A DNA stretch of 64,000 nt, taken from assembly GCA_934097015.1 (NCBI GenBank), contig CAKONF010000001.1:65082-129081 (forward strand), written 5' to 3'. Source of the DNA: an uncultured Bacilli bacterium (lineage in GTDB: Bacteria > Bacillota_I > Bacilli_A > RF39 > UBA660). A program made the position numbers and the translations under genes. Positions 16,514 through 54,725 of the stretch are shown one piece after another. The notes under the pieces are model-generated. The model was not told where the DNA came from. It saw nothing but the letters and a program-made list of their open reading frames with translations, and ran no database searches. Each line of letters opens with the position of its first letter. Position 1 is the first letter of the stretch.

Positions 16514-16718
16514 CTAATTAAAATTATATAATATAGGTTATTTTTATTCAATTTTTTATTTGTCTTTTTTTGTTTTATTTTGATAAGTTTTTAGAAGTTT
16601 TGTCGAATGACTTTATTTTATTATTAGATTGTATTAGTATAACTAATCGAACGTCTGGGTTGATGTCTACCTTACGAACTGAATTATAAAAGAGTAAAAG
16701 TAGTAAGGTGGTGATATT

Positions 16719-16793
16719 ATGTTCAAAAATTTAGAAAAATTTATGAATAGAATCATTGTTATTTTAATATTACTCTTCTTGGATAAAGAATAA
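16719..16793 (+). CDS. 24-aa hydrophobic peptide MFKNLEKFMNRIIVILILLFLDKE (candidate type I toxin)
   Basis: ATG start with SD 'aaggtggtg'. It has a charged N-terminus, a 10-13-residue aliphatic core and an acidic tail. Confidence 0.6.
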   Translation: MFKNLEKFMNRIIVILILLFLDKE

Positions 16794-16802
16794 TTAAATT
16801 AA

Positions 16803-16885
16803 AATAAAAACATCCGCCACTCAGTTAGGACGGATGCCTGCAACCAAGGTAGACATCTAACCTACAGGGGGTAGACGTTCTACTT
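16803..16885 (-). ncRNA. Predicted antisense sRNA of module B
   Basis: Minus-strand -35 TTGACA (plus-strand tgtcaa, 16915-16920) and -10 TATTAT (plus-strand ataata, 16892-16897) with a 17-nt spacer. The terminator hairpin (plus-strand 16811-16836) is followed on the minus strand by a T-run. Confidence 0.5.
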
Positions 16886-17098
16886 GATTAAATAATAGCA
16901 TTTGATATAGTGATTGTCAAATGTTTTTTTTATGTAGATTTTACTAAAAATGTAGAAATATGATAAGTTTTTGGAAGTTTTGTCGAAAATCTTTAATTTA
17001 TTATTAGATTGTATTAGTATAACAAATCGAACGTCTGGGTTGATGTCTACCTTACTAACTGAATTATTAGAGAGTAAAAGTAGTAAGGTGGTGATAAT

Positions 17099-17173
17099 GT
17101 GTTCAAAAATTTAGAAAAATTTATGAATAGAATCATTGTTATTTTAATATTACTCTTCTTAGATAAAGAATAA
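17099..17173 (+). CDS. 24-aa peptide (V/M)FKNLEKFMNRIIVILILLFLDKE with a GTG start
   Basis: Identical to the copy B peptide except for the start codon. An upstream out-of-frame ATG gives MCSKI* only. Confidence 0.45.
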   Translation: MFKNLEKFMNRIIVILILLFLDKE

Positions 17174-17182
17174 TTAAATTAA

Positions 17183-17267
17183 AATAAAAACATCCGCCAC
17201 TCAGTTAGGACGGATGTCTTCCAACACAAAGGTAGACATCTAACCTACAGGGGTAGACGTTCTACTT
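17183..17267 (-). ncRNA. Predicted antisense sRNA of module C
   Basis: Minus-strand TTGACA (plus-strand 17298-17303) with a TATTAT-like -10. The hairpin 17191-17216 is followed on the minus strand by a T-run. Confidence 0.45.
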
Positions 17268-17322
17268 TATTAAATAATAACATTTATTATATATAGTTGT
17301 CAATTGATAATGGAGGGTTTTG

Positions 17323-17654: not shown

Positions 17655-17817
17655 ATTAAATAACTCTATTTTAAACGTGTTAATTTAATTGATAAGGGTT
17701 TAATATATAACGATACAAATAAATTCATTAAAAATATTTATTTAGATGGTAGAATATTTGTACTTGTAAAACGTTAACATTTATTATAAAATTATTTTAG
17801 AGTAGAAGGTGTTTCTA

Positions 17818-18069
17818 GTGGATAATAAAGTTAATGTTGATTTGATAGTTCCTAGTATTGGAGAGAGATATAATATATTTATTCCAGTAAATAAAACTAT
17901 TGGGGAAGTTATTGTTATTCTTAATAATACAATAAATAATATGACAGGTTATTTTCCTATAGTAAATAATTTATCTATTTTGGATGTTGTTAGTAATAAA
18001 ATATATGGAAGTAATGTAGATGTAAAAAGTGCTGGTATAAAAAATGGTGCTATACTTGCATTAATATAG
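17818..18069 (+). CDS. esaB: YukD/EsaB-like ubiquitin-fold T7SS protein
   Basis: 83 aa starting 'MDNKVNVDLIVPSIGERYNIFIPVNKTIGEVI'. It lies immediately upstream of essC. The start is taken at GTG 17818 with SD 'gaaggtg'. Confidence 0.7.
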   Translation: MDNKVNVDLIVPSIGERYNIFIPVNKTIGEVIVILNNTINNMTGYFPIVNNLSILDVVSNKIYGSNVDVKSAGIKNGAILALI

Positions 18070-18076
18070 GTGTAAT

Positions 18077-21000
18077 ATGAGGTTAGTATTAGAAAGTAAA
18101 GACCAATTAACTATTACTAAATTACCTAACACTGTATCCGGTAATTATTGGATAATTGATGATAATAATAAAAATCTACTTAATGTTAGTGTAGAAAATG
18201 ATAGTTGGGTATTGAATAGCAATACAGAGATAAAAATTAGCAACAACATTAATAATGATAAATTAAGTAATATTAATTATTTAGAAAAAGTTATTTTAGA
18301 AGAAAATAAATATTATTATATTACTAATATAATGACTAAAGAAAATTATATATTATATACTTTACCTAGTTATGAATATTATGAAAACTTTGTTATAGAT
18401 TATAATCAAAACAATAATATAATTATTGGTAATGGTAAAAATAGTGATATAGGAATTAATAATAGTTTGTTTAATGATAAAGATATTAGTATAGAATATG
18501 ATAAAAAAAGCAACAATATATTATTTAAAAACTTAAATGAAAAAAGTAATAGTTTTATAAATTATAGAAAATGTAATAGTTGTTATTTAAGTAATGGAGA
18601 TATTATATTTAAAAATGGTATATTTATTTATTATTTTGGTAGTTTATTGTTAGTTAGTAATAATAAACATGATTTAGTATTTAATTCTTTAAGAGTTAAT
18701 AAAAGATTAATTAAAGAAAATGAAAAAAAGGATTACAGTAATTTAATAGATAAAGATGTTAAAGTATTTGATAAAAATAGTATGTTTCAAAGACCTCCAA
18801 GGTTTAAAAGGAAGATAGAACATAAAGAATTTAATATTGATAGTCCTACACAAAAAGAAAATGACGAAGAAACTCCATTAATATTTACAATAGCTCCTAT
18901 GATGACTATGGGAATGATGAGTTTAGTAACTGGAATGAGTAGTTTAGGAAAAGTATTAAATGGTGAAAGTACAGTAAAACAAGAATTAGGTTCACTTTTA
19001 ATGTGTGGATGTATGTTGCTTTCTATGATAGTGTTTCCGTTAATTCAAAAGTTTTATGATAAAATGAAAAAAGCGCAAAAAGAAAGAAAACGAAGAAGAA
19101 AATATAAAAAGTATATTAGTAGTAAACACGATGAAATATTTAAAGAAATAAATTTTCAAAAACAAGTTATGATAGAAGATAATTTACCTATAGATAAAGT
19201 AAGAGATATAATTTTATCTAGAAGTAGAAATTTATGGGATAGAAAATTAGAACATGAAGATTTTTTAAATTTAAGACTTGGTATTGGAAATACTAAACCC
19301 GATATAGAAATTAAATATCCTGAAAGCCATTTTACTTTAGAAGAAGATGATTTAAAAGATATAATAGATGATTTAGTGAATGAAAGTAAAGATATTACTG
19401 ATGTCCCTATTACACTTAATTTTAGAACTAATAATAAGACTGGTGTAATAGGTGATAATAATAATTTATATAATATGTTAGATAATTTAATGCTACAGAT
19501 AATGGCTTATCATGGATATGATATGTTAAGAATTTGTATATTGACTAATAATAATGTTTATTGGGATAAGTATAGAAACTTACCTTATTTGTGGAATAAT
19601 GATAAAAGTATAAGATATTATGCTAGTAATAAAGAAGATATTAATAAAGTATGTAGTTATTTAATGGAAGAATATAATTATAGAAAAGAAGTATATGAAG
19701 ATGGTACTGTATTTAATCCATATTATTTAATTATTACTGATGATATTAATAGTGTTAAGAATAATGTATTTGTTAGTGAAATATTAAAGAATCGTAGTAA
19801 TTTGGGTTATAGTTTGCTTATGTGCGTTAATAAATTAGATTTATTGCCTAATGAATGTAATATGTTTGTTAATTTAAGTAATGAAGTATGTGGTATATTT
19901 ACTAATCAAATGACTATGGATAATCAAATTGCTTTTAAGAAAGATGTTGTTAATTTTTCTTTAAGAAATGCAATTGCTAATATTAGTAATATTCCTATGG
20001 ATATAAATAATGGTAAATTTGTTTTGCCTAAAAAATATGGTTTCTTAGAAATGTATGATGTTGGAAATGTGAATCAACTTAATATTGTTAATCGTTGGAA
20101 GAATAATGATGTTATCAATAGTTTGAGTTGTCCTGTTGGTATTGATGAACAGGGTGAATTATTCAATATTGATTTACATGAAAAGGCTCATGGACCTCAT
20201 GGATTAGTTGCAGGTATGACTGGTAGTGGTAAGTCTGAATGGATTATTACTTATATATTATCTATGGCAATTAATTATAGTCCTGAAGAAGTTCAATTTG
20301 TACTTATAGATTATAAGGGTGGAGGACTTGCGTTAACATTTGATAATAGAGAAAATAATATTAAATTGCCACATGTAGTTGGTACTATTACGAACTTAGA
20401 TATTGTTGAGATTAAAAGAAGTTTAGCCAGTATAGAGAGTGAACTTAAAAGACGTCAAGCAATGTTTAAGAAAGCTCGTGAAATACTAAATGAAAGTAGT
20501 ATGGATATATATAAATATCAAGATTATTATAGACAAGGTAAACTTAGTGATCCAATGAGTCATTTATTTATAATAAGTGATGAGTTTGCTGAATTAAAAG
20601 TACAACAACCTGAGTTTATGGATAAACTTATTAGTACAGCAAGAATTGGACGTAGTTTAGGAGTGCATTTGATACTTGCTACTCAGAAACCGAGTGGGGT
20701 TGTAGATGACCAAATATGGTCTAACTCTAAATTTAGAGTATGTTTAAAAGTACAAGATAAGAGTGATTCAAATGATATGATTAAATGTCCTGATGCTGCT
20801 ATGATAAAAGAAACTGGTAGATTTTTCTTACAAGTTGGATATAATGAATTATTTATGAAAGGACAAAGTGCTTATGCTGGAATGCCATATTATGAAAGTG
20901 ATAAAAAAATTACCGTTGTTAATTCTAGTATAGATTTTGTTGATGAAATAGGTAGTATTATAAAACGCGGTGATGTTAAAAAGAATAATACTCAATATGT

Positions 21001-22672
21001 TCATAAAGGTGAAGAGTTGCCAAATGTTTTAAATTATATTATAGATACTTTTAAAAATGAAAATTTAAATGTTAAACCATTATGGTTAAGTAGTATACCT
21101 AAAGTAATATATGTAGATAAATTAAAAGAAAAATATAATTATGTAAAAGAAGATTATGTTTTAAATCCTATTATTGGAGAATATGATTATCCTTCTAAAC
21201 AAACACAAGGTTTATTAACATTAGAATTAAGTAAAGAAGGAAATACAATAATATATGGTTCTAGTGGAAGTGGTAAAGAAAATTTAATTACGACAATACT
21301 TTATTCATTGATTAGCAATTACAGTGTATATGAAGTAAATAGTTATATATTAGATTTTGGGAGTGAAATATTAAATAATTTTGAAGCTGCACCACATGTC
21401 GGAGATATTATACATAGTGGTGATGATGAGAAAATAGAAAACTTATTTAAATTTATAAATAATGAGATTAAATTTAGACGTAAAAAGTTTATGAATAGCA
21501 ATGGAAATTATTTAGATTATGTAAAAAATAGTGAAGAAAAAATACCAAATATTGTTGTTATAATAAATTTATTTGAAGTGTTTAGTGATTTATATGATAA
21601 ATATATTGATAATATAGTTGAACTAACTAGAGATTCCTCTAAATATGGTATATTTTTCATTTTAACTAGTGCTAGTAGCACTGGAATTAGAACTAAGATA
21701 ACACAAAATTTTAAAAATTTGATTACTTTACAATTGAATGATGAAATGGATTATAGGAATGTATTGGGAAATACTAACGGTGTTGTTCCTAGCAAATACG
21801 TTGGTAGGGGATTAGTCAAGTTGGATAAAGTTGTAGAGTTTCAAACTGCATATTGTTATCCTAAAGAAAATTTATATGATAATGTAAAAATGCTATGTGT
21901 TAAATTATTTATGGATATGAAGATGAAAGCAAGAGCGATACCTGTATTACCTAATGTTGTAGAATTTAAAGATATTAATAAAAATGAAATAAACATAAAT
22001 AACATACCTATTGGTATAGTTAAAAAAACTTTAGATATTGCTAGTATTAATTTGAAAGATAACATTAGTTATTTAATGAGTAGTAGAAATTTTGATGATA
22101 TGTTAACTTTTATTGATAAATTATTATTTATATTAAATAGTTCTAGTAGTTTTAATACATTTGTATTTGATAGTAAGTTTGTTTATGAGGAAAATAAATT
22201 TAATAATATAACATATTTGAATAATGGATATAGTGATGTGTTAAAACAAATAAGTGAGTATGCAGATAACGTAGATGATGTATTAAAACAAAATAGTAAT
22301 AATAGGAAAAGTATTAGTAATGTAAAAGAAGTTTTAGTTGTATTATTAGGATTAGATAAGTTTGTTAAGTCTTTAAATGACGATGATAAAAAACTATTTG
22401 AAAATATTATTAATAAAACTAAAGATAGTATAAAAATACATTTTGTGTTTGTTGATGGTAGTAATAGTTTAAAGAAGAACGAATATGAATCTTGGTATAA
22501 AGATATAGTTGATTCTAGCAGTGGTTTATGGATTGGTGATGGTTTTGCAGAACAATATAGTATTAAACCTACAAAGATTCAACAATCGTATTATGAATTA
22601 ATTGGTAATAGGTTTGGATATATAGTTTCTAATGGAAACGTAGATTATATTAAAATTATAGAGAAAGAGTAA
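18077..22672 (+). CDS. essC: EssC, the T7SS FtsK/SpoIIIE-family ATPase
   Basis: 1531 aa with an N-terminal FHA-like region and two TM helices near residues 265-325. It has multiple P-loop domains ('GLVAGMTGSGKSE', 'IIYGSSGSGKEN') with Walker B 'FIISDEF'. Confidence 0.9.
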   Translation: MRLVLESKDQLTITKLPNTVSGNYWIIDDNNKNLLNVSVENDSWVLNSNTEIKISNNINNDKLSNINYLEKVILEENKYYYITNIMTKENYILYTLPSYEYYENFVIDYNQNNNIIIGNGKNSDIGINNSLFNDKDISIEYDKKSNNILFKNLNEKSNSFINYRKCNSCYLSNGDIIFKNGIFIYYFGSLLLVSNNKHDLVFNSLRVNKRLIKENEKKDYSNLIDKDVKVFDKNSMFQRPPRFKRKIEHKEFNIDSPTQKENDEETPLIFTIAPMMTMGMMSLVTGMSSLGKVLNGESTVKQELGSLLMCGCMLLSMIVFPLIQKFYDKMKKAQKERKRRRKYKKYISSKHDEIFKEINFQKQVMIEDNLPIDKVRDIILSRSRNLWDRKLEHEDFLNLRLGIGNTKPDIEIKYPESHFTLEEDDLKDIIDDLVNESKDITDVPITLNFRTNNKTGVIGDNNNLYNMLDNLMLQIMAYHGYDMLRICILTNNNVYWDKYRNLPYLWNNDKSIRYYASNKEDINKVCSYLMEEYNYRKEVYEDGTVFNPYYLIITDDINSVKNNVFVSEILKNRSNLGYSLLMCVNKLDLLPNECNMFVNLSNEVCGIFTNQMTMDNQIAFKKDVVNFSLRNAIANISNIPMDINNGKFVLPKKYGFLEMYDVGNVNQLNIVNRWKNNDVINSLSCPVGIDEQGELFNIDLHEKAHGPHGLVAGMTGSGKSEWIITYILSMAINYSPEEVQFVLIDYKGGGLALTFDNRENNIKLPHVVGTITNLDIVEIKRSLASIESELKRRQAMFKKAREILNESSMDIYKYQDYYRQGKLSDPMSHLFIISDEFAELKVQQPEFMDKLISTARIGRSLGVHLILATQKPSGVVDDQIWSNSKFRVCLKVQDKSDSNDMIKCPDAAMIKETGRFFLQVGYNELFMKGQSAYAGMPYYESDKKITVVNSSIDFVDEIGSIIKRGDVKKNNTQYVHKGEELPNVLNYIIDTFKNENLNVKPLWLSSIPKVIYVDKLKEKYNYVKEDYVLNPIIGEYDYPSKQTQGLLTLELSKEGNTIIYGSSGSGKENLITTILYSLISNYSVYEVNSYILDFGSEILNNFEAAPHVGDIIHSGDDEKIENLFKFINNEIKFRRKKFMNSNGNYLDYVKNSEEKIPNIVVIINLFEVFSDLYDKYIDNIVELTRDSSKYGIFFILTSASSTGIRTKITQNFKNLITLQLNDEMDYRNVLGNTNGVVPSKYVGRGLVKLDKVVEFQTAYCYPKENLYDNVKMLCVKLFMDMKMKARAIPVLPNVVEFKDINKNEININNIPIGIVKKTLDIASINLKDNISYLMSSRNFDDMLTFIDKLLFILNSSSSFNTFVFDSKFVYEENKFNNITYLNNGYSDVLKQISEYADNVDDVLKQNSNNRKSISNVKEVLVVLLGLDKFVKSLNDDDKKLFENIINKTKDSIKIHFVFVDGSNSLKKNEYESWYKDIVDSSSGLWIGDGFAEQYSIKPTKIQQSYYELIGNRFGYIVSNGNVDYIKIIEKE

Positions 22673-22933: not shown

Positions 22934-23542
22934 ATGAATATTAATGTTAGAGATTTGGATTTAGGTTATAGTCAATGTGAGGAATTAAATACTTTATCTA
23001 AGACTAGTGGAACTAATTTAATTAGTAATTTGTCAACTGATATAAACAATTTAAAGGCTCACTGGAAAGGCACTGATGCTACAGCACATATAAACAATTT
23101 AATTAAAGTTTATGATGCTTTGGTTGCCTTGGTGACTGATGCTAAGGTTATTACTTGCAATTCAGGTAGTGCAATAAGCACTATTCAAGAAGTTAGAAGA
23201 AGTAATGGTGGTTCTGGAAATATTGGAGGTCCTTTAGATGGCAATGCGCCTGATGCAAGTAGTTTACCTACTATTGAATCAACAAGCGAATACTTTTGTG
23301 ATCCATCAGCTAGAATAGATTATACGTTATTAGAACAAATTTGTTCTGATTATTCTAGCTTTATTAATAATTTTAGAAGTCAAAAAGATGCTTTAATGTC
23401 AAATTGGACTGCAGGTGCCAACAGAGAAAATGCTGTTAAAGTATTTGATGAATTTGATTCGAATTCTGAGACATATAATAAATATTTAACAGATGCTAAA
23501 GAAAATTTAGGAATTGCTGTAAGTAATTTATCACAATTATAA
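22934..23542 (+). CDS. Tandem (double) WXG100-like T7SS substrate
   Basis: 202 aa from the ATG with SD 'ggagaagggag'. The first half has 'LKAHWKGTDATAH', a W-x-G motif in a helix-turn-helix. The second half has 'LMSNWTAGANRENA', a W-x-x-G variant. A Gly/Ser/Pro linker (RRSNGGSGNIGGPLDGNAPDASS) separates the halves. Confidence 0.6.
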   Translation: MNINVRDLDLGYSQCEELNTLSKTSGTNLISNLSTDINNLKAHWKGTDATAHINNLIKVYDALVALVTDAKVITCNSGSAISTIQEVRRSNGGSGNIGGPLDGNAPDASSLPTIESTSEYFCDPSARIDYTLLEQICSDYSSFINNFRSQKDALMSNWTAGANRENAVKVFDEFDSNSETYNKYLTDAKENLGIAVSNLSQL

Positions 23543-23593: not shown

Positions 23594-23890
23594 ATGAATC
23601 AAAAATATGAAAAGTACTTACCAATTGGTAGTGTTGTTTTATTGAAAAATGCAAAAAAAAGAATAATGATTACTGGATTTTGTATAAAAAGTAAGGAATC
23701 TGATTTAGATAAAGTTTTTGATTATATTGGCTGTCTATATCCAGAAGGAATAATAGATTCTGAAAAAAATTTGTTATTTGATCATAATCAAATTGAAACT
23801 ATTTATGCAATAGGATATAGCGATGATGAAGAAAGAGAGTTCAAAAAGAAATTACAAGAAGTTTTAAAAGAGGAAAATAATAATGTCTAA
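23594..23890 (+). CDS. DUF4176-family protein (LXG-associated)
   Basis: 'YLPIGSVVLLKNAKKRIMITGF...FDYIGCLYPEGI' matches the DUF4176 pattern (LP.GSVV.LK.......G......DY.GC.YPEG) from memory. It overlaps the next ORF by 8 nt. Confidence 0.55.
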   Translation: MNQKYEKYLPIGSVVLLKNAKKRIMITGFCIKSKESDLDKVFDYIGCLYPEGIIDSEKNLLFDHNQIETIYAIGYSDDEEREFKKKLQEVLKEENNNV

Positions 23891-24281
23891 ATCTTCTAAC
23901 AATAAAAATACTGAATCTCAATATTGGCGTCAAAAAGAAAGAGAATATCGTGAATTAAAAAAATCATATGAGAAATACAGAGACAAATTATCTTCTTTAA
24001 AAGAAGTTTTGTCTCCCTTAAGTATACATTTAGTTAATTCAAAAAAGTATTTTGAAGATGGTGGATATATTGAAGATAATGGTGAAACATTAGATAGAGG
24101 AAAATTATTAGAAATGAAGAATAGTTTAGAAAAGATTATTGAAAGATTATCAAGTGTTATTTCTGACACAAATTCTAAAATATCTTCTTTACAAGTATTA
24201 ATGAACGATTGTAATAAAAAAGCAAATCAAGCTGTTATAAACGCTTCTAGCAATTGTTATTTTGCTGTTAAACCTAAGTAA
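23883..24281 (+). CDS. Small all-helical protein, candidate Lap-type LXG-targeting partner
   Basis: 132 aa, coiled-coil rich and translationally coupled. Its position between DUF4176 and the LXG toxin is typical of DUF3130/DUF3958/DUF5082-like partners. Confidence 0.4.
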   Translation: MSKSSNNKNTESQYWRQKEREYRELKKSYEKYRDKLSSLKEVLSPLSIHLVNSKKYFEDGGYIEDNGETLDRGKLLEMKNSLEKIIERLSSVISDTNSKISSLQVLMNDCNKKANQAVINASSNCYFAVKPK

Positions 24282-24298: not shown

Positions 24299-26122
24299 AT
24301 GAAAATTGATGGAATTTTATTTTATAAAGCACAATTAGAAATAAAAAAAGTGTTTGATGTAATTGATGGTAATAAAAATAAAATAGATGATTTGATAAAT
24401 TCTGCTCCTCCTAAAGGTTATCCTTGGAAATCCAAAGTTAATGAGATATGTAATGATTTAGTATCTTTTAATTTAGATGTTTGTAATCTTTCAAAAGCGA
24501 TAGAGAATGCTAGATTAAATATTATTAGTTTACAAGGTAGTGAAAAATTTATAGAAGAGTATGGTAGTATGATTACTAATATATCATTTGGAAATGAGTT
24601 TGGCAATAATGTTTTTGGATTTAGTGGAAGTATTAATGAATCTATAATAAAACTTTCAGATGATGATTATTATGAATATTTGTATTCTTATTTAAAAAGT
24701 ATGGATGTAAAGTTGTTAAATGAAGATCAAAAAAATATTTTAGATCAACTTGAAGCTTCTAAAAAAGGTTTTAAGTCGGTTGAAGAAATGAAAAAATGGG
24801 AGCAAGCAAAGGTGGAATACGAACAAATGAATCTATTTCAACAGGCATTATCTGATACTGGTACTTTTCTGTGTTCAACTGCCTGTGGTATAATTTCTGT
24901 TGCTGAAGAAATTGTTGATGGTTATATTATGTTAGAAAGTTCAACTTTATTATATACTTCCCCTATTGGATGGGGAATTAACGCGATAAGTTTTTTTCAA
25001 GAAAAAAGTGGAATTTCTAAAGATAGAACTTTAAAATCTAAATATCAAGATGTAGTTCAGGATATTATTAATTATAATTTTTCAGATAATTTATATGATT
25101 CAATAGTAGATAGTACTGGATTAAATATATATTCAGCTTATGGCACTTGTCATACTGCTGGATTAACTTTGGGTAATATTGTAGCAGAGGTTGGGATACA
25201 ATTTATACCTGGGGGGAATATATCTTTATTTGCATTACACGCTTTAAAGGCTGCTGGTAAAACATCTCAGAAGGCAATAAAAGAGGTGAAAAAAGCTGAA
25301 AAATTGTATTTGAATGGTGATGTTTCTGCTGAAGAATATAATGATATTATGAGAAAAAAAAGTTTTGGTCATATTGCTTTAACTAGTGGGGCGAATGCAG
25401 TTTTAGAAGGTGGCATATCAACAATATTGTATGGTAAATTTGGATTCGCAAAAGAAACAGGTGGAAAAGCTGTAAATTTTGTTGCAAAAAAAATTCAACC
25501 TTTAATAAAATCTAAAAAGGCTTCAGAAGTTGTCGTTAAATCTGCTATATCTTTTAGTAAGGAATTTGCGAAGGAAGGTATTTCTAGTGTAGGTTATGGA
25601 AAGAAATATGATTTAAAAGAAACGATGAAAAGTGGTTTAACTAGTGTAGCCACTACCGTATTTAATGAAACTGTTGTAGCACCATTAACAGATAAGGTTA
25701 TTAACAAAAAGGGAATAAATTCAAAAAATACTTTTTATAAACAAGAAAATTCTAAATTAAAACATATTAATAGTAATGTAGAAGAAAATATTAAAACTAC
25801 TCAAGAAAAATTATCATTAATTGAAACTAAACGTGCTGCACTATTTGAAAGTGGCTGTGAAGGTAAAGAGAGTATTAAGGGAGCATTTGGTAATTATGAA
25901 CCTCCTAAAACTGATCATGTTGCTGCTTATGATGATGTAATTAAAAAATATACAGGAAAAATAACTATTCAACAGAACATTATTAGTCAAAATAATGATG
26001 CAATTGGAAGAAATTCATTAAATGTATTTGAAAAATTGATTAATAATGGTGCTATTACTAAAATATCAAAAAAAATTGCTTCTAAGTTTGAAAAAGATAT
26101 TATTGCTAATGCTATGAAGTAG
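24299..26122 (+). CDS. LXG-type T7SS polymorphic toxin with a C-terminal domain of unknown type
   Basis: 608 aa with a helical N-terminal about 200 aa ('IISLQGSEKF'). It has a glycine-zipper segment ('AGLTLGNIVAEVGIQFIPGG...ALTSGANAVLEGGISTILYG') like that preceding the toxin module in YeeF/TelE-type LXG proteins. The C-terminal about 200 aa has no recognisable catalytic motif. Confidence 0.55.
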   Translation: MKIDGILFYKAQLEIKKVFDVIDGNKNKIDDLINSAPPKGYPWKSKVNEICNDLVSFNLDVCNLSKAIENARLNIISLQGSEKFIEEYGSMITNISFGNEFGNNVFGFSGSINESIIKLSDDDYYEYLYSYLKSMDVKLLNEDQKNILDQLEASKKGFKSVEEMKKWEQAKVEYEQMNLFQQALSDTGTFLCSTACGIISVAEEIVDGYIMLESSTLLYTSPIGWGINAISFFQEKSGISKDRTLKSKYQDVVQDIINYNFSDNLYDSIVDSTGLNIYSAYGTCHTAGLTLGNIVAEVGIQFIPGGNISLFALHALKAAGKTSQKAIKEVKKAEKLYLNGDVSAEEYNDIMRKKSFGHIALTSGANAVLEGGISTILYGKFGFAKETGGKAVNFVAKKIQPLIKSKKASEVVVKSAISFSKEFAKEGISSVGYGKKYDLKETMKSGLTSVATTVFNETVVAPLTDKVINKKGINSKNTFYKQENSKLKHINSNVEENIKTTQEKLSLIETKRAALFESGCEGKESIKGAFGNYEPPKTDHVAAYDDVIKKYTGKITIQQNIISQNNDAIGRNSLNVFEKLINNGAITKISKKIASKFEKDIIANAMK

Positions 26123-26156: not shown

Positions 26157-26558
26157 ATGAATCAAGATAAAGAGAGATTTTTTTCTGGTATACAAAAATA
26201 TGTAGATGATGGATTATTAAGAACTATCTATTCTGATGATAACTTGGCGGTTGTTTGTGTGGGGGATTTATTTTACTTAATCTGTCCTTATTTTACTTTA
26301 GATAATGGTGATTACTTTGGTATGTCTATAAAAAAAGATAATATTCATATTGCAATTGAAGATCCTGAATTCTTTTTTAAATCTATTAAAGAAATGAATT
26401 CATCTTTATTCCTTAGTAAAATGTTTAATTTTTCTTATAAATATTATGATGTAGTAAAAGGTATAGTAGATGAATGTCATAAAAAAGGAGATACTGTCGA
26501 TTTAGATTATGAATTTGAAGAAAATTTAAAACAATTATATGTTAACAAAACAAAGTAA
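26157..26558 (+). CDS. Candidate cognate immunity protein (soluble, 133 aa)
   Basis: It lies immediately downstream of the toxin ORF with RBS 'aaaggaggatactATG'. There is no signal peptide or TM segment. Confidence 0.4.
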   Translation: MNQDKERFFSGIQKYVDDGLLRTIYSDDNLAVVCVGDLFYLICPYFTLDNGDYFGMSIKKDNIHIAIEDPEFFFKSIKEMNSSLFLSKMFNFSYKYYDVVKGIVDECHKKGDTVDLDYEFEENLKQLYVNKTK

Positions 26559-26575: not shown

Positions 26576-26707
26576 ATGGAAAAGAAAAAGATTATAATTA
26601 ATGGAATTGAAGAAGAAATATATGTTGTTAGTGATAAAGAAAAGGAAGATAATTTGGATTTAATAAATTTAGAAGATACTGTTGATTTATCTGAGGTAAT
26701 TAATCAT
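26576..26707 (+). CDS. 43-aa acidic small protein overlapping the start of the next gene
   Basis: MEKKKIIINGIEEEIYVVSDKEKEDNLDLINLEDTVDLSEVINHE. Its stop overlaps the ATG at 26706 (ATGAATGA). Confidence 0.35.
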
Positions 26708-28034
26708 GAATGAGTTTTTAGAAAGAATAAAGATAATTGCTAAATATAATCCCGGTTTATTAAATGATGATTTTTATGATATAGTTTATACTGAATTAAT
26801 AGGTTTTAATTTAGGACATAATCAAGAAAAATTTAAAAATATAAGTAATATGTTTAGTAAATGGATTGATAGAAATAATGTTAATGAAAGATTACGTACT
26901 TTTATAGATAATAGATATCCTTATTTTTGTCAATTTGTTAACCGTGGTGCTAAACCTATAAATAAAGATGCAATTAAATTATATATTCCACTTGATGAAG
27001 AGCATTTATATGAGGGTGTTAATAAATTATTTACTTTTATTACTAATATGGGTATTGAACATAATTCTAAAGTTGGTAGTGAAATTAGAAACGATAATGT
27101 TGTTATTAGAGTTAGTAATATTAAGGATGCTGAAACAATTATTAATTATGTTAAAAATGATAAATATTTAAGTGAAGGTTTACTTAATGTTAATCCATTT
27201 ACAATTAATTTAAATGGTGTAGGAATTGCTATGGATGGTATGCGTTCATATAATATAGAATTATCTAAATCTATTGCTAATTTTACTAAAATATTAAGTG
27301 AAAAAAATAGATTGGAAGATTTAAATGTAGATACTTTTAATGAATATTTAAATAATGTGAGAAGTAATGATAGAGATTTAAATATGATTAATGATATTCA
27401 AAAAAGAGTGACTGCAGGTCAAAGTTTTGATATGAGTTATGTTAAAGATATATTTTCTAAATATAATGGAAATGTTAATAATATAAATAAAGAAGGTATT
27501 TTAAAAGAGGCAATAATTGAAACATATAATAAATATCAAAGTATAGATCATGTTATTCATGCAATTGCTAGGTTTAGATATAATGGTGATGCTTGTGGAT
27601 TTACTAGAAATAATGGAGCAAGAGCTAGATTAGAAATGGGTTTAAGTTTAGAAGATGTTAATAATATTTTAAATAATTATCCGTATTATGGTGATAATAA
27701 GATTGAAGCATATATTAATAATTGTATAGGTTTAAATAATACAAAAGATGATAAATATCAATATTTAGTAAATGCTTACAAAGATACATATAATAAATAT
27801 GGTGATAGACAAGCTGATCTTGCTTTAAGAAAATATATTCTTAATAAAGAAGTAAAATACATTACTAATAGTAATGGCGCTAGAACTAATTTAGAAATGT
27901 ATTTAAAAGATAGTGATATAATGCAAACTTTAAAAAATGGAATGAATATAGATAGTTATTGTTCTTTAGAAGATATATGTGAAACTTTTATAAATGAAAT
28001 GCGACAATTGAATATGAGTCGTGGTAGTTATTAA
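26706..28034 (+). CDS. Hypothetical 442-aa protein with internal 'NGAR(A/T)xLEM' repeats, associated with the T7SS island
   Basis: 'GFTRNNGARARLEMGLSLEDVNNIL' and 'YITNSNGARTNLEMYLKDSDIMQTL' are repeated about 95 aa apart. There is no signal peptide or TM. Confidence 0.5.
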   Translation: MNEFLERIKIIAKYNPGLLNDDFYDIVYTELIGFNLGHNQEKFKNISNMFSKWIDRNNVNERLRTFIDNRYPYFCQFVNRGAKPINKDAIKLYIPLDEEHLYEGVNKLFTFITNMGIEHNSKVGSEIRNDNVVIRVSNIKDAETIINYVKNDKYLSEGLLNVNPFTINLNGVGIAMDGMRSYNIELSKSIANFTKILSEKNRLEDLNVDTFNEYLNNVRSNDRDLNMINDIQKRVTAGQSFDMSYVKDIFSKYNGNVNNINKEGILKEAIIETYNKYQSIDHVIHAIARFRYNGDACGFTRNNGARARLEMGLSLEDVNNILNNYPYYGDNKIEAYINNCIGLNNTKDDKYQYLVNAYKDTYNKYGDRQADLALRKYILNKEVKYITNSNGARTNLEMYLKDSDIMQTLKNGMNIDSYCSLEDICETFINEMRQLNMSRGSY

Positions 28035-29446: not shown

Positions 29447-30166
29447 ATGGTAATTAATAATAATTTTGTAGATAAATATGGTCATAAATATGATGGTGTA
29501 ATAGAAAAAGCTTTAACAAAAGATGAATTAAACAATATTGGTATATTTGTAAATCAAACAAAAAGGGAAGAAAATATATTCATAAAAACTAATGGAGTCT
29601 ATATATATCAAGATAAAGATAATTCTAATATTGGCTATAGGATATATGATGAATATGCTGATTATGGTTTTAATGGTTATGGAGATGCTAAGCTTATTTC
29701 TAATTTTAACAAAATAAGAGATAATGTAAAATTGACTGATTTACCTATAGGTGTTGTTAGTTCTGATGGAAATGTAGTTGGTCAGATAATACCTTATTAT
29801 CCTAATTGTGAAAGCGTTTATGATTATGCAAAAAGAACAAAAAATATTAATGTAATCAAATATTATAAAAAAATGATTAATATATTAAAAGAATTATATG
29901 ATAATGGTATGATATATGTAGATACTCATGCTAAAAATTATTTGATAGTTAAAAATGGTATTAAATTAATAGATTTTGATAGTAGCTATATTGATTTTTC
30001 AGATACTAAGTTTAAATATGATAGTATGATTTATACATTTGTTAGAATGCTTAAAATATTAAATGAGTTGCTTGGAATTGATTTTAATATAAACAATAAT
30101 TTTGTTCGTGATTTACAAGATATAGAAGAAGTAGTTGAAGAAATGGAGAAAAAGCTAGTTAGATAG
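29447..30166 (+). CDS. Protein-kinase-like fold protein (APH/Kdo-kinase/RIO-like)
   Basis: 'MIYVDTHAKNYLIVKNGIKLIDFDSS' resembles the catalytic loop (HxDxxxxN) plus the DFG-like 'DFD'. Confidence 0.4.
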   Translation: MVINNNFVDKYGHKYDGVIEKALTKDELNNIGIFVNQTKREENIFIKTNGVYIYQDKDNSNIGYRIYDEYADYGFNGYGDAKLISNFNKIRDNVKLTDLPIGVVSSDGNVVGQIIPYYPNCESVYDYAKRTKNINVIKYYKKMINILKELYDNGMIYVDTHAKNYLIVKNGIKLIDFDSSYIDFSDTKFKYDSMIYTFVRMLKILNELLGIDFNINNNFVRDLQDIEEVVEEMEKKLVR

Positions 30167-36524: not shown

Positions 36525-39500
36525 ATGATAAAGGATGATGATTTAATAAAAATTATAAGTGAATTTAAAAGTGGAAATATTAATTATTTTATTAATAATT
36601 ATTCTTTTTCTGATAGAAAAATGTTTGTTGATAATATGTATCAATATAATGATGTTTTAGAAAATAATTTTGCGAAAGAACAAGATGTAATTATTTTTTT
36701 ATCATCAATATTTTCATATGAAGAGGCACGCAAAATATTAGTAGAAAATGAAATTAATTTTATTAATAGTGTTAATAGTATCTATATCTCATTATTTACT
36801 TTGCCGGATGAAGAAAAAAAGAAATATTTACATTATTTTAAGTATGATACTGAATTATTTAAAACTTTTGTAAATTCTTTTGCTGATGAGAATGTTTATA
36901 ATGAAAATGTTGTTAAAGGTGATATAAATTTAGAAAATATAAATAAATTAAATGATACTGAAAAAATAGACTTAATTAGACATTATTCAAAATATACTAA
37001 TATTGCAAAAATAATTAGTTCTATGAATGTTGTAAATATAATTACATACTTAAAAAATAATAAAATAGACAATAGAAGTTCTGAATATCTTTTAAAAATT
37101 ATAGATTTTGAAGTTTTAAAAAAAATATTATTTGATAGAGATATTTATGTGGAACAAAATTTTTTAGAATATATTATCAACAAACAAAGCTATTTACAAA
37201 AGATAGAATTATTGAAAAATAATAATATTTTAGAAAGACTAGATTCTTTATATTATTGTAAACTTTTATCTAATTTAAAAATTAATGATATTATACAAAT
37301 ATTAAAAAATATTGATTATAAAAAGCATTTATCAAAATATGATTTCCGATCTATTTTTAATAATAATGATATATATAAGGATAATAATGAGGATGAAGAA
37401 GATATTTCTTTTTTAATAGAGTTATATCAGGAAGGATATATTGATTTTAATACTTTTAAATATTTTCCTGATGATATTAAAGTTTTATGTTTTAACAATG
37501 ATAAATTATTGGATTCAGATAAAAAGATAATTTTATCTTTTATAGAAAATGATTTGATAAAAACTGATTTATATTTTTCTTTTAAAGGGAATAGATTAGC
37601 TAATTTTGATATTCAAGATCAGTATAATATTTTAAAAACATTAAATGATGATAATAAATTAAAACTTATTAAAATAGATAATTTAGATAATGATCTAAAA
37701 ATAAAATTAACAATGTCTTTAAGCGAAGATAATTTAAAATTTGATTATTTAGATTATATAGAACGTGAATATATGATTTCATCTATATTTAATGAGACTG
37801 ATGTATTAAACATTTTAAAAACATTAAATGATGAAAATAAAAGAAAATATATTCTTCAAAATAAATATGGTTTAAGTAAGACATTTATTAGTGATTTAAT
37901 AAGTTCTTTGCAATCAAGTGATATTAATGATAAGTTTATTATTGATAATTTTGAAATGTTTTTAAATCCAGATATAATGACAATGTCTGGAGTATATGTT
38001 TATTATAAAAATATTTTATTTCCTATAAAAGATGTTTCTGTAAAAATCAAATTATTAGAAATATTAAAGGATAAATTAGATGAACAATTTTTCATATCTT
38101 TAATTACAAATATTAAATATGATTATTTAGATGATTATAAAATAAAATTGATAAAAGAATCTTCATTTGAACTTACAGAATCTTATGTTGAATTATTAAA
38201 ATCTTTAAACAATGTATATAGGGGTATTGAAATTTTAGAAAATAATTCTATAGAAAATTCTAATATTATATATTTGAAATTGTTATATGAATTAAATAGT
38301 AAATATGATGAGTTAAAAATAAATTTTTTAAATAATAATATAGAATTATACAAAGATTCTCCTGATATAGTTGTTAGAGAACTTATTCAGAAAATTATTG
38401 ATAGCATTAATGTAGATAATGATATTAACAAGTTAAAATTGAAAATTAAATTTGCAATCAATTACAAGTTTAATAGTGATTTTATATATGATTTAATTAT
38501 ACACAATGAAGAGTTCATTGATAATAATTATGTATTTGATGATTTAATATTATATTGTTCTAAATGTTATAACTGTGACTATGAACGTTTATTAAATTTA
38601 ATTTCTAAATATGGAAATGTTGTTTTTAGATTTTTAAATAATAAAAATATAATTAGTTTTTTGAATTTAGATCAAGATAATTATAATAAAATAAAAAATA
38701 TGTTTGATTTTCAAGAAATGATAAAGACTAATGACCAACATATAGATAATGTATTAAGTGCTTTATTACAAAAAAAGTTTACATTAGATAATAAAGATAT
38801 GTTAGATATTTTTATTAGTATTAAAAATGCTATTATATCTAATAATATAGACGAAGTGTTAGTTATTTTAAATGATATTAGTAGTTATTTGTGTAATTGT
38901 TTATTAAAAAACATAAATTTAGATGATGATAATTATATTTCTAATATTCTTAGAGAATGTGCTTATAATGATATTAATGCTTTTATAAAAGACTTATATG
39001 ATAAGAATAAAATAGATAGTAATTTAAAAATAATAAATAAATTTACTAATAAATATATATTAGAAAAAAGAAATGATTTTGTTAAAAATAATTTTCATAG
39101 TTATAAAGGTAAATTATTGTTAGATGGTACATATGAAAAAAAATCTTTTATTAGATGTTTTATAGAACAAAAATCACAGTCTTTTATTATAGAACATTTA
39201 AAAAAACTAGATTTGAATAAGTTAACTTTAACTGAGAAAAAATTATTAGATAATGAAAAAATATTGTTTGATATAATTTCTTTAAAAAAGGGATTATATG
39301 TTGAAAATAAAGATAATATTTTAAAATTTATTAAAACATTTAATAGTGTTATGGATAAATATTATTTAAGTCATGATAAATTTTACATTAGTATTCAAGG
39401 GTGTAAATTATTATATAATATTCCTTATTCAAAAGAAGATATTTTATCTGTATTAAGTGGATTAGATATTAATTTGTTGAAAAATAAATTACTTAATGAT

Positions 39501-40814
39501 GATAAATTATATAGTGTATTAATTAAGTTATTGAAAAAATATAAACTTGTAGGTTGGGGCAATACTTTTTATAATTTATCAAATGAAGTTGATTTGGAAA
39601 TAGATAATGATACTATTAGTTCTTTCATAAATAATTTTTATAATATTTATCCGACTTTAGTTAAAAAAAACAATTTTGATAATCAAGAGAGAAAAATGAA
39701 TGGTATTATGGATCAGAGAGAAATTTCATTAACAAGCTTACTTAATGAAGCTTTAGTTTATGCTAGCTGTTCGTTTAAATATTCTAAGTTGCTTGGTAAA
39801 GATGATTTTAAATTAATTAAGAGTAATCCAACTCCAAATTCGGCACCTTTTACTAGTAAAGAAAGACTTAATGAGATAACAACTTTAATTAAAGATATGT
39901 ATTTGAGAAATAAAATTTCTATTCCACCATTAAATGAAAAAATAAATATATCTGGAAAAAATATAAATGTTTTAATAAGTAATAGTGTTGATATGACTAA
40001 TGTGACAATGGGTGAGAGAACTGGATCTTGTATGAGAATTAAAGGCCATGCTTATAGTTTGTTTAAATTTTGTTTAACAGATGTTAATGGTTTTCATATT
40101 AAATTTGTTAATGATAATGGTAAGTTTGTTAGTAGAGTAAGTGGTTTTAGGAATGGAAATACAGTATTTTTGAATCAATTGAGATATAGCTTAGATGAAA
40201 ATTATAGTAATGATGATTTAATAAGTTCTTTAAAAATATTTTCAGAGAAATTAATAGAAGAAACAAAAAATGATATTGTTCCTTTAGATAATGTTGTTAT
40301 TTCAAATGGTTATGCAATGGAGTCTTTGTCTAAAGAAAAAATTAATTTGGGTTGTAGTGATATAAAGAAAGGTCTATCGAGTGATTTTTATTCTGATATT
40401 GTTAGAAATGGTATTCTTCTTGCGACAAGTGGAGAAGATTTTATTCCTATTAGAACAACACAACATAATGAAAAATTATTTGATGTTAGTAGACAATCAG
40501 TTAATTATACTGATAACACTAATGAAATTATTGATAATATAGATAAGTTTAAAATGATAAGCGATGCTATTGGTGAAATGAATATTTCTTCCATGTCTGT
40601 TTTTAGTGAAATTTGTGAATATAAGAATGATATATCGTCTATGTATTTTGGAGAAGATTGGTATATAGTTTTTGATAAAAACAATAATATATTGGATGAG
40701 TTTATAATAGATAGAGGTTTTAACAAAGAATTTGTATATAATGAAATGAATGGAGTAAAAAATAATATAATGGGAGCTGTTTATGAGAAAAATAGGGATT
40801 ATAAAAAATTATGA
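36525..40814 (+). CDS. Giant 1429-aa repeat-containing hypothetical protein with no signal peptide
   Basis: A continuous ORF with a good RBS. It has internal repeats ('NILKTLNDDNK', 'NILKTLNDENK') and a less biased C-terminal about 350 aa ('GERTGSCMRIKGHAYSLFKFCL...'). Confidence 0.6.
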   Translation: MIKDDDLIKIISEFKSGNINYFINNYSFSDRKMFVDNMYQYNDVLENNFAKEQDVIIFLSSIFSYEEARKILVENEINFINSVNSIYISLFTLPDEEKKKYLHYFKYDTELFKTFVNSFADENVYNENVVKGDINLENINKLNDTEKIDLIRHYSKYTNIAKIISSMNVVNIITYLKNNKIDNRSSEYLLKIIDFEVLKKILFDRDIYVEQNFLEYIINKQSYLQKIELLKNNNILERLDSLYYCKLLSNLKINDIIQILKNIDYKKHLSKYDFRSIFNNNDIYKDNNEDEEDISFLIELYQEGYIDFNTFKYFPDDIKVLCFNNDKLLDSDKKIILSFIENDLIKTDLYFSFKGNRLANFDIQDQYNILKTLNDDNKLKLIKIDNLDNDLKIKLTMSLSEDNLKFDYLDYIEREYMISSIFNETDVLNILKTLNDENKRKYILQNKYGLSKTFISDLISSLQSSDINDKFIIDNFEMFLNPDIMTMSGVYVYYKNILFPIKDVSVKIKLLEILKDKLDEQFFISLITNIKYDYLDDYKIKLIKESSFELTESYVELLKSLNNVYRGIEILENNSIENSNIIYLKLLYELNSKYDELKINFLNNNIELYKDSPDIVVRELIQKIIDSINVDNDINKLKLKIKFAINYKFNSDFIYDLIIHNEEFIDNNYVFDDLILYCSKCYNCDYERLLNLISKYGNVVFRFLNNKNIISFLNLDQDNYNKIKNMFDFQEMIKTNDQHIDNVLSALLQKKFTLDNKDMLDIFISIKNAIISNNIDEVLVILNDISSYLCNCLLKNINLDDDNYISNILRECAYNDINAFIKDLYDKNKIDSNLKIINKFTNKYILEKRNDFVKNNFHSYKGKLLLDGTYEKKSFIRCFIEQKSQSFIIEHLKKLDLNKLTLTEKKLLDNEKILFDIISLKKGLYVENKDNILKFIKTFNSVMDKYYLSHDKFYISIQGCKLLYNIPYSKEDILSVLSGLDINLLKNKLLNDDKLYSVLIKLLKKYKLVGWGNTFYNLSNEVDLEIDNDTISSFINNFYNIYPTLVKKNNFDNQERKMNGIMDQREISLTSLLNEALVYASCSFKYSKLLGKDDFKLIKSNPTPNSAPFTSKERLNEITTLIKDMYLRNKISIPPLNEKINISGKNINVLISNSVDMTNVTMGERTGSCMRIKGHAYSLFKFCLTDVNGFHIKFVNDNGKFVSRVSGFRNGNTVFLNQLRYSLDENYSNDDLISSLKIFSEKLIEETKNDIVPLDNVVISNGYAMESLSKEKINLGCSDIKKGLSSDFYSDIVRNGILLATSGEDFIPIRTTQHNEKLFDVSRQSVNYTDNTNEIIDNIDKFKMISDAIGEMNISSMSVFSEICEYKNDISSMYFGEDWYIVFDKNNNILDEFIIDRGFNKEFVYNEMNGVKNNIMGAVYEKNRDYKKL

Positions 40815-53513: not shown

Positions 53514-54725
53514 ATGGATATAAAAGATAAAATATATGAAATACGTGGTATAAAAATAATGTTAGATAGAGATTTGGCAGGTTTGATTGGCTATGAAACA
53601 CGAGTTTTAAATCAAATTATGAAAAGAAATTTATATAAATTTAATATGGAAGATTATTTTCAATTGTCATCTTTTGAATTTAATAATTGGAAATCACAAA
53701 TTGTGACTTCCAAAGAAGATAAAATAGGTCTTAGAAAACTTCCATATGCGTTTACAAAAAATGGAATTAAAGTGTTAAGTACTATTTTAAAAAAAGAAAA
53801 TTCTTTAAAAATTATTAATAAAATATTAGAAAATTTTGAAGATAAAAATGAATTGATTTTATCTGGCAAAACTTCTTTAAACTCCCTAAATATGGGAGAT
53901 TATATACAAAATAAGATATATGAAATTAGAGGACAACTTGTAATGTTTGATAGTGATTTGGCAAGAATTTATGAATGTACAAATGGAACAAAAACAATAA
54001 ATTTAGCAGTTAAAAGACATGCAAATAAATTTCCAGAAAGGTTTATGTTTCAATTAACGGAAAGTGAATATTATAGTTTGCGGTTTCAATTTGAAACCGC
54101 AAATACAAAAACTAGAAGTCTTCCATATGTTTTTACTGAACAAGGTGTTGCAATGCTTGCAACAGTATTAAGAACTAATGTTGCAGATGAGATAAGTGTA
54201 AAAATAATGGATGCATTTGTAAAAATGAGAAGATATATTTCTAATTCATTAATAGAACAAAAATACATTAATGAATTAGTATTAAAAGATAATAAAAGAA
54301 TAGAACTATTAGAAGAAACTTTTAATCAACTAGAAGTTAAGAAAGAACATTTATTCTTTGAAGGTCAGATATACGATGCTTATTCATTATTAATTAAAAT
54401 ATTAAGTGTTGCAAAAGAAGAAATAATTATAATAGATAATTATGCTGGCAGAGAACTATTTGATATATTAAGAGATGTAGAATGTAATATAAAAGTAATA
54501 ACAAAAAATATAAGTGAAGAATTAATAAAAAAATATAATAAACAATATAACAATGTTAGTGTAATAAAAAATGATGTATTTCATGATAGATTTATAATAA
54601 TAGATAAAAAAATATTATATCATTCAGGGTCAAGTTTTAAAGACTTAGGTAAAAAGTGTTTTGCAATAAATAAAATTCAAGGTAAAGATTTTTTAGAACT
54701 TTTGTTAAACAAAGTAAAGTTATAA
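53514..54725 (+). CDS. Protein with two tandem ORF6N (KilA-N-related) domains
   Basis: 'IYEIRGIKIMLDRDLAGLIGYETRVLNQIMKRN' and 'IYEIRGQLVMFDSDLARIYECTNGTKTINLAVKRHANKFPERFMFQLTESE'. Confidence 0.6.
   Translation: MDIKDKIYEIRGIKIMLDRDLAGLIGYETRVLNQIMKRNLYKFNMEDYFQLSSFEFNNWKSQIVTSKEDKIGLRKLPYAFTKNGIKVLSTILKKENSLKIINKILENFEDKNELILSGKTSLNSLNMGDYIQNKIYEIRGQLVMFDSDLARIYECTNGTKTINLAVKRHANKFPERFMFQLTESEYYSLRFQFETANTKTRSLPYVFTEQGVAMLATVLRTNVADEISVKIMDAFVKMRRYISNSLIEQKYINELVLKDNKRIELLEETFNQLEVKKEHLFFEGQIYDAYSLLIKILSVAKEEIIIIDNYAGRELFDILRDVECNIKVITKNISEELIKKYNKQYNNVSVIKNDVFHDRFIIIDKKILYHSGSSFKDLGKKCFAINKIQGKDFLELLLNKVKL

Follow-up and report, generated by a model that had tools for sequence, protein, structure and literature searches.

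A family of putative type VIIb secretion effectors without an LXG domain and with a conserved glycine-zipper module in uncultured gut bacteria

Toxins belonging to type VIIb secretion systems (T7SSb) are recruited via helical partner proteins that bind their N-terminal domain, and some of them also depend on a chaperone of the DUF4176 family, whose binding site is an amphipathic middle domain (PMC12478183). DUF4176 proteins constitute the Ltc/Lcp-type chaperone family for toxins of type VII secretion systems (T7SS; PMC12478183). TelE of Streptococcus gallolyticus (PMC10434224) and EsxX of Staphylococcus aureus (PMC12744356) are helical toxins with a glycine zipper, and they depolarise membranes or make them permeable. 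In the cytoplasm of the producing cell, a soluble heterodimer neutralises EsxX by sequestering its zipper (PMC12744356). The passage of cytoplasm-acting T7SSb toxins through the membrane of the target cell is an unsolved problem, and recent work on DUF4176 has not settled what the "middle domain" does (PMC12478183). Here we describe a gene at positions 24299..26122 (+ strand) of a 64,000-nucleotide stretch of DNA from an uncultured Bacilli bacterium (contig CAKONF010000001.1), called the window below. The gene lies in a type VII secretion cassette and encodes a putative effector of an unannotated protein family that lacks the LXG domain.

We posit that this protein represents a new family of T7SSb effectors outside the LXG group and that it is probably membrane-active, neutralised by a soluble 133-amino-acid protein and chaperoned by a DUF4176 protein, a reading that we favour with modest confidence. 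The family offers a large conserved middle module (well modelled over residues ~161-378) with a zipper hairpin as a candidate for membrane insertion. Since some members have it joined to recognisable toxin domains whereas others have only a bare helical tail after it, this module would suit experiments that separate translocation from pore formation, or show both.

The effector gene, its family and its domains

The open reading frame (ORF) has the coordinates and the + strand given in a preliminary description, made from the sequence alone, but it encodes 607 amino acids plus a stop codon and not 608 amino acids. Because it runs over 607 codons in DNA of 23-29% GC content, it is a real gene and not a chance ORF. 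A Shine-Dalgarno-like stretch (GGGTGGTG) is located directly 5' of the ATG, the same ATG was picked by gene callers on five independent metagenome contigs, and an alternative GTG start lies three codons 5' of it. A 98% identical copy (P0001) was found on 6-7 human gut metagenome contigs, Hadza samples included. The four peptides quoted in the preliminary description are all present in the protein (residues 289-306, 360-379, 406-422 and 600-607); overall, its observations were partly confirmed and its interpretation, an LXG-type toxin with a glycine-zipper region and an unassigned C-terminal toxin domain, was partly supported. Scanning for promoters and terminators gave no information in DNA this rich in AT (117 sites vs 105 expected), and PADLOC returned nothing meaningful.

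The protein belongs to a family that is unannotated and has so far been seen only in metagenomes. A HMMER scan of 1.84 billion representatives recovered 61 proteins at E <= 1e-3, all of the 20 homolog clusters that were looked up are metagenome-only and unnamed, and the effector has no match in NCBIfam. A word-index homology search with the effector sequence returned near-identical copies only; with a 36-sequence alignment of the shared module or with a single typical module it returned nothing, where Ala/Gly-rich words probably swamp the candidate list. Two peptide-pattern scans of 185,579 species genomes, which have limited sensitivity, yielded no relative, and a metagenome locus scan gave three loci only.

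Past the shared module, the C-terminal extensions of the family fall into at least 14 unrelated clusters. ADPrib_exo_Tox is present in four members and TNT in three or four, and in the three transferase-bearing members that were checked (P0014, P0046 and P0056, a motif-guided choice) ADPrib_exo_Tox makes up the last ~130-190 residues. Ten other homologs, picked at first guess as toxin carriers, had no Pfam match. In locus L015 (36-2945), the P0056 gene is followed by a 67-amino-acid ORF and then by an ADP-ribosylglycohydrolase gene, and from this arrangement P0056 and the glycohydrolase are likely a toxin-immunity pair. Since its members carry ADP-ribosyltransferase or TNT domains, the transferase being C-terminal where checked, the family behaves as polymorphic toxins. 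Taken together with EssC upstream and with DUF4176 and WXG100-like neighbours, these domains support the earlier proposal of a T7SS substrate of the polymorphic-toxin kind.

The region common to ~60 representatives is a module at residues ~161-436 (24779..25606, + strand), which is seen over residues ~170-340 in pairwise matches and over ~161-436 with an iterated profile. Its consensus reads TF..S...G...V.E.IVDG ... DFV..D.S...YD..V...G.N..IAYG..HT.G...G...GY.AL...PGG........GL.AAG., and E203, D207, Y266 and G320 are nearly invariant. An AlphaFold2 (AF2) run with a 33-sequence alignment gave a mean predicted local distance difference test score (pLDDT) of 68 for the effector (40 from the single sequence), with residues ~161-378 of the module all helical at pLDDT 85-95. 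The middle region of the protein is hydrophobic or amphipathic in character. Foldseek of the AF2 model against PDB gave no match below E 0.2, with template modelling (TM) scores of ~0.1.

Within the module, residues 281-322 (25139..25264, + strand) form a glycine-zipper-like helical hairpin of the pattern YG..H..G288xxxG292xxxA296 ... P304-G305-G306 ... G320, with AF2 helices at residues 283-301 and 306-338. Across 35 homologous representatives, glycine is found at position 288 in 31/35, at 292 in 32/35 and at 296 in 24/35 (alanine in a further 7/35), while P304 is present in 25/35, G305 in 31/35, G306 in 30/35 and G320 in all 35. Given these column counts, the glycine zipper is a real and conserved feature of the family. 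The canonical GxxxGxxxG occurs in 23/36 family representatives, and the effector carries the GxxxGxxxA variant.

Two Gly-rich segments had been described as G-x3-G repeats. The first indeed holds G288xxxG292xxxA296; in the second the glycines are seven apart, and strict GxxxG motifs occur twice in the effector, at residues 98 and 288. The first segment is not a loose linker but the core of a ~270-residue conserved helical module. The proposed resemblance to the corresponding segments of YeeF and TelE could not be demonstrated: sequence similarity to a PDB chain was not found, though the PDB copy used holds recent T7SS entries (9dcs). Similarity to TelE or EsxX was likewise absent among the PDB matches of the effector, module and subgroup profiles at E <= 10, a comparison that covers the PDB-held members only.

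The N-terminal domain comprises residues 1-160 (24299..24778, + strand). It is helical, as had been noted from the sequence, with AF2 helices at residues 5-34 and 43-78 (pLDDT 60-69) and low confidence over residues 76-120. The domain is homologous to the N-termini of 12 other representatives, and in the resulting 13-sequence alignment F84 and Y88 are invariant inside an L-[DN]-x-x-F-A-x-E-Y motif. It bears no LXG signature. PF04740 matches neither the whole effector (E <= 1), nor residues 1-200 (E <= 10), nor the thirds of the protein, nor any of 60 family members (E <= 1), and a profile of the N-terminal domain against PDB returned noise only and no solved LXG or Tel protein. The effector does have L78-Q79-G80 at the end of helix 2, but the Gly column holds S, P, Q, N, D or E elsewhere and is not conserved. 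An LXG domain is thus not recognised in the effector, neither of the two testable features that define it in sequence having been found, and the former label "LXG-type" is not supported. Whole effector families of uncultured gut Firmicutes escape searches that depend on the LXG profile.

At the other end, a Lys-rich helical tail (residues 437-607; 25607..26119, + strand) takes the position of the toxin domain of other members. Eight further representatives can be aligned with residues ~373-602 at an identity of 22-26% (P0006, P0008/P0063, P0009, P0013, P0015, P0023, P0025 and P0055); the family-wide core runs to about residue 436, and the part specific to this subgroup covers ~437-607. In the nine-sequence alignment, Y378, K414, K421, K588 and K592 are the only invariants after the hairpin, with no invariant His, Cys, Asp or Glu among them. 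Residues 379-607 contain 40 Lys and Arg versus 24 Asp and Glu, a net charge of ~+16. The AF2 confidence of the tail is mostly below 55, with helices at ~480-520 and ~540-570 reaching 77-84. That the C-terminus matches no known toxin family, as the preliminary description had it, was borne out by the absence of any fold or family match for the tail (Foldseek against PDB gave nothing below E 0.2).

The type VII secretion cassette and its rates of change

The assignment of the surrounding genes to a type VII secretion cassette is well supported. EssC, the FtsK/SpoIIIE-type T7SSb motor ATPase (1531 amino acids; 18077..22672, + strand), matches TIGR03928 (T7_EssCb_Firm) at E 9.9e-299 with 994 bits (cutoff 778). 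It is encoded upstream of the effector on the same strand, with 1.6 kb from its end to the effector start, and the linkage of the effector family to EssC also holds in three related loci, L006, L009 and L016. Immediately 5' of essC is an ORF of 83-86 amino acids (17809..18069, + strand) in the EsaB/YukD position; as it has no Pfam match, the label refers to position and size only.

Three genes are located between EssC and the effector. The first encodes a 202-amino-acid tandem WXG100-like protein (22934..23542, + strand) with HWKG in its first half and NW..G.NR in its second. Its residues 139-201 match Pfam WXG100 at 6e-6, and its orthologs do so at 1e-10 over two stretches in L006, at 3.7e-5 over the first half in L009 and at 1.6e-8 in locus L012, where the gathering score is exceeded. 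W44-K45-G46 is invariant in the alignment of this protein family. Judging from these orthologs, both halves of the protein are WXG100-like; hhalign found no relation between it and the N-terminal domain of the effector. The second gene encodes a small DUF4176 protein of 98 amino acids (23594..23890, + strand; PF13780, E 2.5e-28), which also matches PDB 9dcs (E 4.5e-7), and one or two DUF4176 genes were seen in every related cassette (L006, L009, L012 and L016).

The third, a 132-amino-acid helical protein (23883..24281, + strand), is a candidate Lap-like targeting partner by position and by a central motif. Among Pfam families it has weak coiled-coil-type matches only, with a YwqH-like match at E 0.7 among the upstream helical proteins. 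With respect to the Lap families DUF3130, DUF3958, DUF5344 and DUF5082, the two upstream helical proteins gave weak matches only, namely the YwqH-like one and one of the L006 ortholog to DUF3958/Lap2 (E 0.031). ORFs of 117-173 amino acids hold the same position in L006, L009, L012 and L016. BLAST and jackhmmer do not connect the window protein to these other small helical partners, and all of them share a central F-x-[ND]-G-G-[HYC] motif (window 23883-24281; L006 9572-9988; L009 9453-9974; L012 5324-5677; L016 7487-7855 and 12577-12963). A hydrophobic N-terminal segment is present in the L006 and L009 partners only.

Located 34 nucleotides 3' of the effector, a soluble, acidic 133-amino-acid protein (26157..26558, + strand) is a candidate immunity or neutralising protein. 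It matches nothing in Pfam or PDB and no known immunity family, and the profile of its family against PDB returned noise. Its behaviour in the alignments is that of a conserved, fast-evolving positional partner, as would be expected of an immunity protein. It is followed by an acidic 45-amino-acid ORF (26576..26713, + strand), which overlaps the start of the next gene and is called in L001-L004 with a 44-amino-acid counterpart in L009, and by a conserved 442-amino-acid protein (26706..28034, + strand) that accompanies the locus and has no Pfam or NCBIfam match. None of the three neighbours (133, 45 and 442 amino acids) has a Pfam match or, by eye, a long hydrophobic stretch. Housekeeping genes border the cassette, with yfhO upstream and ackA and bipA downstream.

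The context is shared by the distant homologs P0063 (L006) and P0013 (L009), with slight variation in gene order; both loci hold a YukD-position ORF, EssC, a 204-amino-acid WXG100-like protein, a helical protein of 138-173 amino acids, the effector, a protein of ~130 amino acids and one or two DUF4176 genes. In L016 (6835-19000), two complete cassettes are arranged in tandem directly upstream of YukD-EssC, each with a 204-amino-acid WXG100-like protein, a helical protein of 122-128 amino acids, an effector of 999 or 1106 amino acids, a protein of 77 or 125 amino acids and DUF4176; an insertion sequence (IS)-type DDE transposase adjoins them. L012 has two copies of the 204-amino-acid WXG100-like gene.

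Comparing the window with L006 and L009, the effector set has evolved fast relative to the machinery. EssC is 64-68% identical, the YukD-position ORF 66-72% (against the 84-amino-acid ORFs of those loci) and the DUF4176 protein 64-67%, and the 442-amino-acid protein, compared with L009 only, is 49% identical. The WXG100-like protein follows at 33%, the 133-amino-acid protein at 26-28% (129 amino acids in L006, 130 in L009) and the effector at 25%, while the 132-amino-acid helical protein has no BLAST match at 1e-3. At the strain level, the effector of the window and that of a 98% identical strain (L001) differ by 13 nonsynonymous and 6 synonymous changes, and 11 of the 13 nonsynonymous ones fall within residues 438-598 (binomial p = 3.6e-5). 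The pN/pS of the effector in this comparison is 0.55, compared with 0-0.29 in eight neighbouring genes. By these sequence comparisons, the rate pattern is that of an effector with private partners and not of a machine part.

The scanned ORFs of the window included no recognisable EsaA, EssA or EssB, and the Pfam listings of the genes near EssC in L006, L009 and L016 contain no family of the T7SS core. The esaA/essA/essB-type core genes may sit elsewhere, or the lineage may use a reduced or divergent apparatus. The recognisable secretion machinery consists of EssC and the ~84-amino-acid YukD-position ORF only, and organisms with such cassettes may run type VII secretion on an unusually small gene set. 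The 442-amino-acid protein was considered as an EssB analog and rejected, as it has no transmembrane-like hydrophobic stretch by eye and no pseudokinase match. The motif NGAR(A/T)xLEM occurs two times in it, and a weak IreB-like match (7.5e-5) was obtained with its L009 ortholog; the pair of the 45- and 442-amino-acid proteins recurs beside the L009 cassette (44 and 438 amino acids, the long protein being 49% identical).

Several further features of the window were recorded. Between yfhO and the secretion genes, a ~380-nucleotide unit is duplicated in tandem (16581-17293), with a 266-nucleotide core that is 94% identical. Each copy has a 25-nucleotide hairpin and ends in a strong minus-strand promoter-like site (TTGACA, 17-18 nucleotides, TG-TATTAT); no Rfam family matches the repeat, which might represent a small RNA or an element of regulation in duplicate. 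Downstream of ackA, a 239-amino-acid ORF (29447-30166), conserved in L001, shows a weak protein-kinase match (E 1.2e-4, residues 119-181) with HxxN and DFD-like motifs. A 1429-amino-acid ORF (36525-40814) without a Pfam match at E <= 1e-5 is located where the window is richest in AT (17-19% GC at 37-40 kb), followed by three ORFs of 320, 304 and 224 amino acids that likewise have no matches. A 403-amino-acid protein (53514-54725) carries two ORF6N domains (E 3.4e-53). As the ORF6N domain is often phage-associated, a mobile element may be present in this section of the window.

Possible modes of action

According to the mechanism that we favour, residues 1-160 would serve as a helical targeting domain that pairs with the 202- and 132-amino-acid proteins for recognition by EssC. 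Residues ~161-436 would form a helical module centred on the hairpin, composed of a GxxxGxxx(G/A) helix, a PGG turn and an Ala/Gly-rich helix, and in the producer the DUF4176 protein would most likely cover those surfaces of the module that are hydrophobic or amphipathic. Residues 437-607 occupy the slot that is filled in other members by ADP-ribosyltransferase and probably also by TNT (NADase-type) domains, here without catalytic-type invariants. The zipper hairpin may depolarise the target membrane or form pores in it, with the basic amphipathic tail assisting, and the soluble 133-amino-acid protein would neutralise the effector in the producer. What the analysis shows is the gene, its cassette, how the family is built and that LXG is lacking; by analogy with the literature on LXG/DUF4176 and TelE/EsxX, we infer the secretion, partner binding, toxicity, membrane target and immunity role of this set of proteins. 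The membrane-active reading in particular is suggested by tail invariants that are Tyr and Lys only, by the net charge of residues 379-607 and by the zipper precedent of TelE and EsxX.

A number of observations weigh against a membrane-active effector. C284xxxG288xxxG292xxxA296 misses both published extended-zipper patterns, (G/A/S)xxxGxxxG and GxxxGxxx(G/S/T), by one residue each (C284 and A296), and the zipper is central (288-296 of 607), unlike in TelE and EsxX, which have theirs near the C-terminus. Since relatives with enzymatic toxins possess the zipper module as well, it may be a delivery element and not the toxic part. It is moreover predicted as folded, with the high pLDDT given above, whereas the known DUF4176-binding middle domains are disordered alone. 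The effector has no classical transmembrane helix, given that no 19-residue window exceeds 1.38 on the Kyte-Doolittle scale. No polytopic membrane immunity gene is found in the locus, unlike in the TspA, EsxX and TelE loci, and neither the presumed toxicity nor the presumed membrane target is backed by a structural match. The excess of the effector pN/pS against L001 over that of the neighbouring genes comes from 19 substitutions and is not significant (Fisher p = 0.08).

The main rival explanation, which we regard as possible but doubtful, is that the tail (437-607) is a new toxin acting in the cytoplasm, either enzymatically or by binding a target, with the zipper module as a family-wide domain for membrane translocation and the 133-amino-acid protein as cytoplasmic immunity. 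It would account for the same module preceding ADP-ribosyltransferase domains and co-occurring with TNT in other members, for a sole immunity candidate that is soluble in a cassette that encodes no membrane protein, and for a clustering of between-strain variation in residues 438-598 of the kind seen in toxin domains; the DUF4176-dependent LXG toxins characterised so far also act in the target cytoplasm (PMC12478183). It sits less well with a tail in which nine proteins share no invariant His, Cys, Asp or Glu, which is modelled as long helices at low to moderate confidence with no fold match, and whose ~170 residues of Lys-rich helix would be unusual for an enzyme. We consider it improbable that the protein is a true LXG toxin, whose N-terminal domain would have diverged past profile detection while still folding and pairing in an LXG-like manner. 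The long N-terminal helical hairpin, the LQG (residues 78-80) with which its helix 2 ends and a cassette logic like that of LXG operons, with helical partners upstream followed by DUF4176, toxin and immunity (PMC12478183; bioRxiv 10.64898/2026.03.12.711312), are all compatible with such an origin, but at E <= 1 PF04740 matches 0/60 members of the family, conservation is lacking in the LxG column, neither Foldseek nor the N-terminal profile led to a solved LXG structure, and the upstream partner is tandem WXG100-like and not a Lap pair of the DUF3130, DUF3958, DUF5344 or DUF5082 kind.

Least probable is a non-toxic role as a secreted or membrane component without which a reduced secretion system would not function, for instance as a subunit of a translocon or pore or in place of the missing EsaA, EssA or EssB. 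One copy at the same place beside EssC in three species (EssC 64-76% identical), a tail without an enzymatic signature and the lack of recognised EsaA, EssA and EssB in the window ORFs scanned, together with the lack of listed T7SS-core Pfam families near EssC in L006, L009 and L016, could be read in this way. Such a component would hardly evolve far faster than the machinery (25% vs 64-68% identity), be present in paralogous cassettes in tandem in L016 and L012, have relatives that end in toxin domains, one of them beside an immunity-type gene, or be without a true transmembrane segment. Because of these rates, tandem cassettes and toxin-bearing relatives, a structural role is unlikely.

Several of these ideas could also hold jointly, which we put forward tentatively and as less probable than the membrane-active reading as such: a self-inserting translocation module, an LXG-independent branch of T7SSb effectors, a subgroup of stand-alone pore formers represented here and a reduced apparatus. 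The ~270-residue module with its GxxxGxxxG-PGG hairpin in a helical bundle may carry ADP-ribosyltransferase, NADase-type and other toxins across target membranes. The apparatus may consist of EssC, the YukD-position protein, the tandem WXG100-like protein and the 442-amino-acid protein, with no recognisable EsaA, EssA or EssB. In its logic, such a module would be comparable to the hydrophobic hairpins of colicin pore domains or of the T domain of diphtheria toxin.

Comparison with known systems

Among described systems, the LXG toxins TelA and TelB of Streptococcus intermedius with their DUF4176 proteins (PMC12478183) resemble the present locus in lying beside essC, in having genes for helical partners upstream and DUF4176 in the operon, and in the small gene that follows the toxin. 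The three-part layout with a helical N-terminus, a hydrophobic or amphipathic middle and a variable C-terminus is likewise common to both, as are the ADP-ribosyltransferase and NADase-type (TNT) domains, which are found here in members of the family. The present family differs in having neither a PF04740 domain nor a conserved LxG. Its partners are a 202-amino-acid tandem WXG100-like protein and an F-x-N-G-G-H hairpin protein and not recognised Lap1-4, and its DUF4176 protein is of the 'small' class. The middle of the present effector is a ~270-residue module that is folded in AF2 over residues ~161-378, whereas that of the LXG toxins is a short disordered amphipathic helix.

With TelE, EsxX and TspA, the effector shares an all-helical build without an enzymatic signature and a conserved small-residue helix of the GxxxG type, and with TelE also the DUF4176 gene in the operon. 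A soluble neutralising protein comparable to TipE or ExiAB is plausible. The differences are that no sequence similarity to the effector was detectable for the PDB-held sequences of these toxins, that its zipper is central, reads GxxxGxxxA and is followed by a PGG hairpin while theirs are near the C-terminus, and that its locus lacks both a gene for a polytopic membrane immunity protein and neighbours of the DUF5085 or DUF443 type. Relatives of the effector that carry enzymatic toxins moreover share its zipper module.

EsaD of S. aureus, which is encoded with EsxB, EsxD and EsaE, is a non-LXG nuclease toxin of T7SSb with separate, single-domain WXG100 partners. It is comparable as a large toxin without a Pfam LXG domain that has WXG100-family partners, a chaperone and an immunity gene after it; the present effector differs from it in possessing a zipper module and no nuclease domain, and in a partner that is covalently tandem WXG100-like. 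What appears to be new is that, within one polymorphic effector family of T7SSb, an N-terminus of non-LXG type goes together with a partner that is tandem WXG100-like and with a conserved middle module of a new kind.

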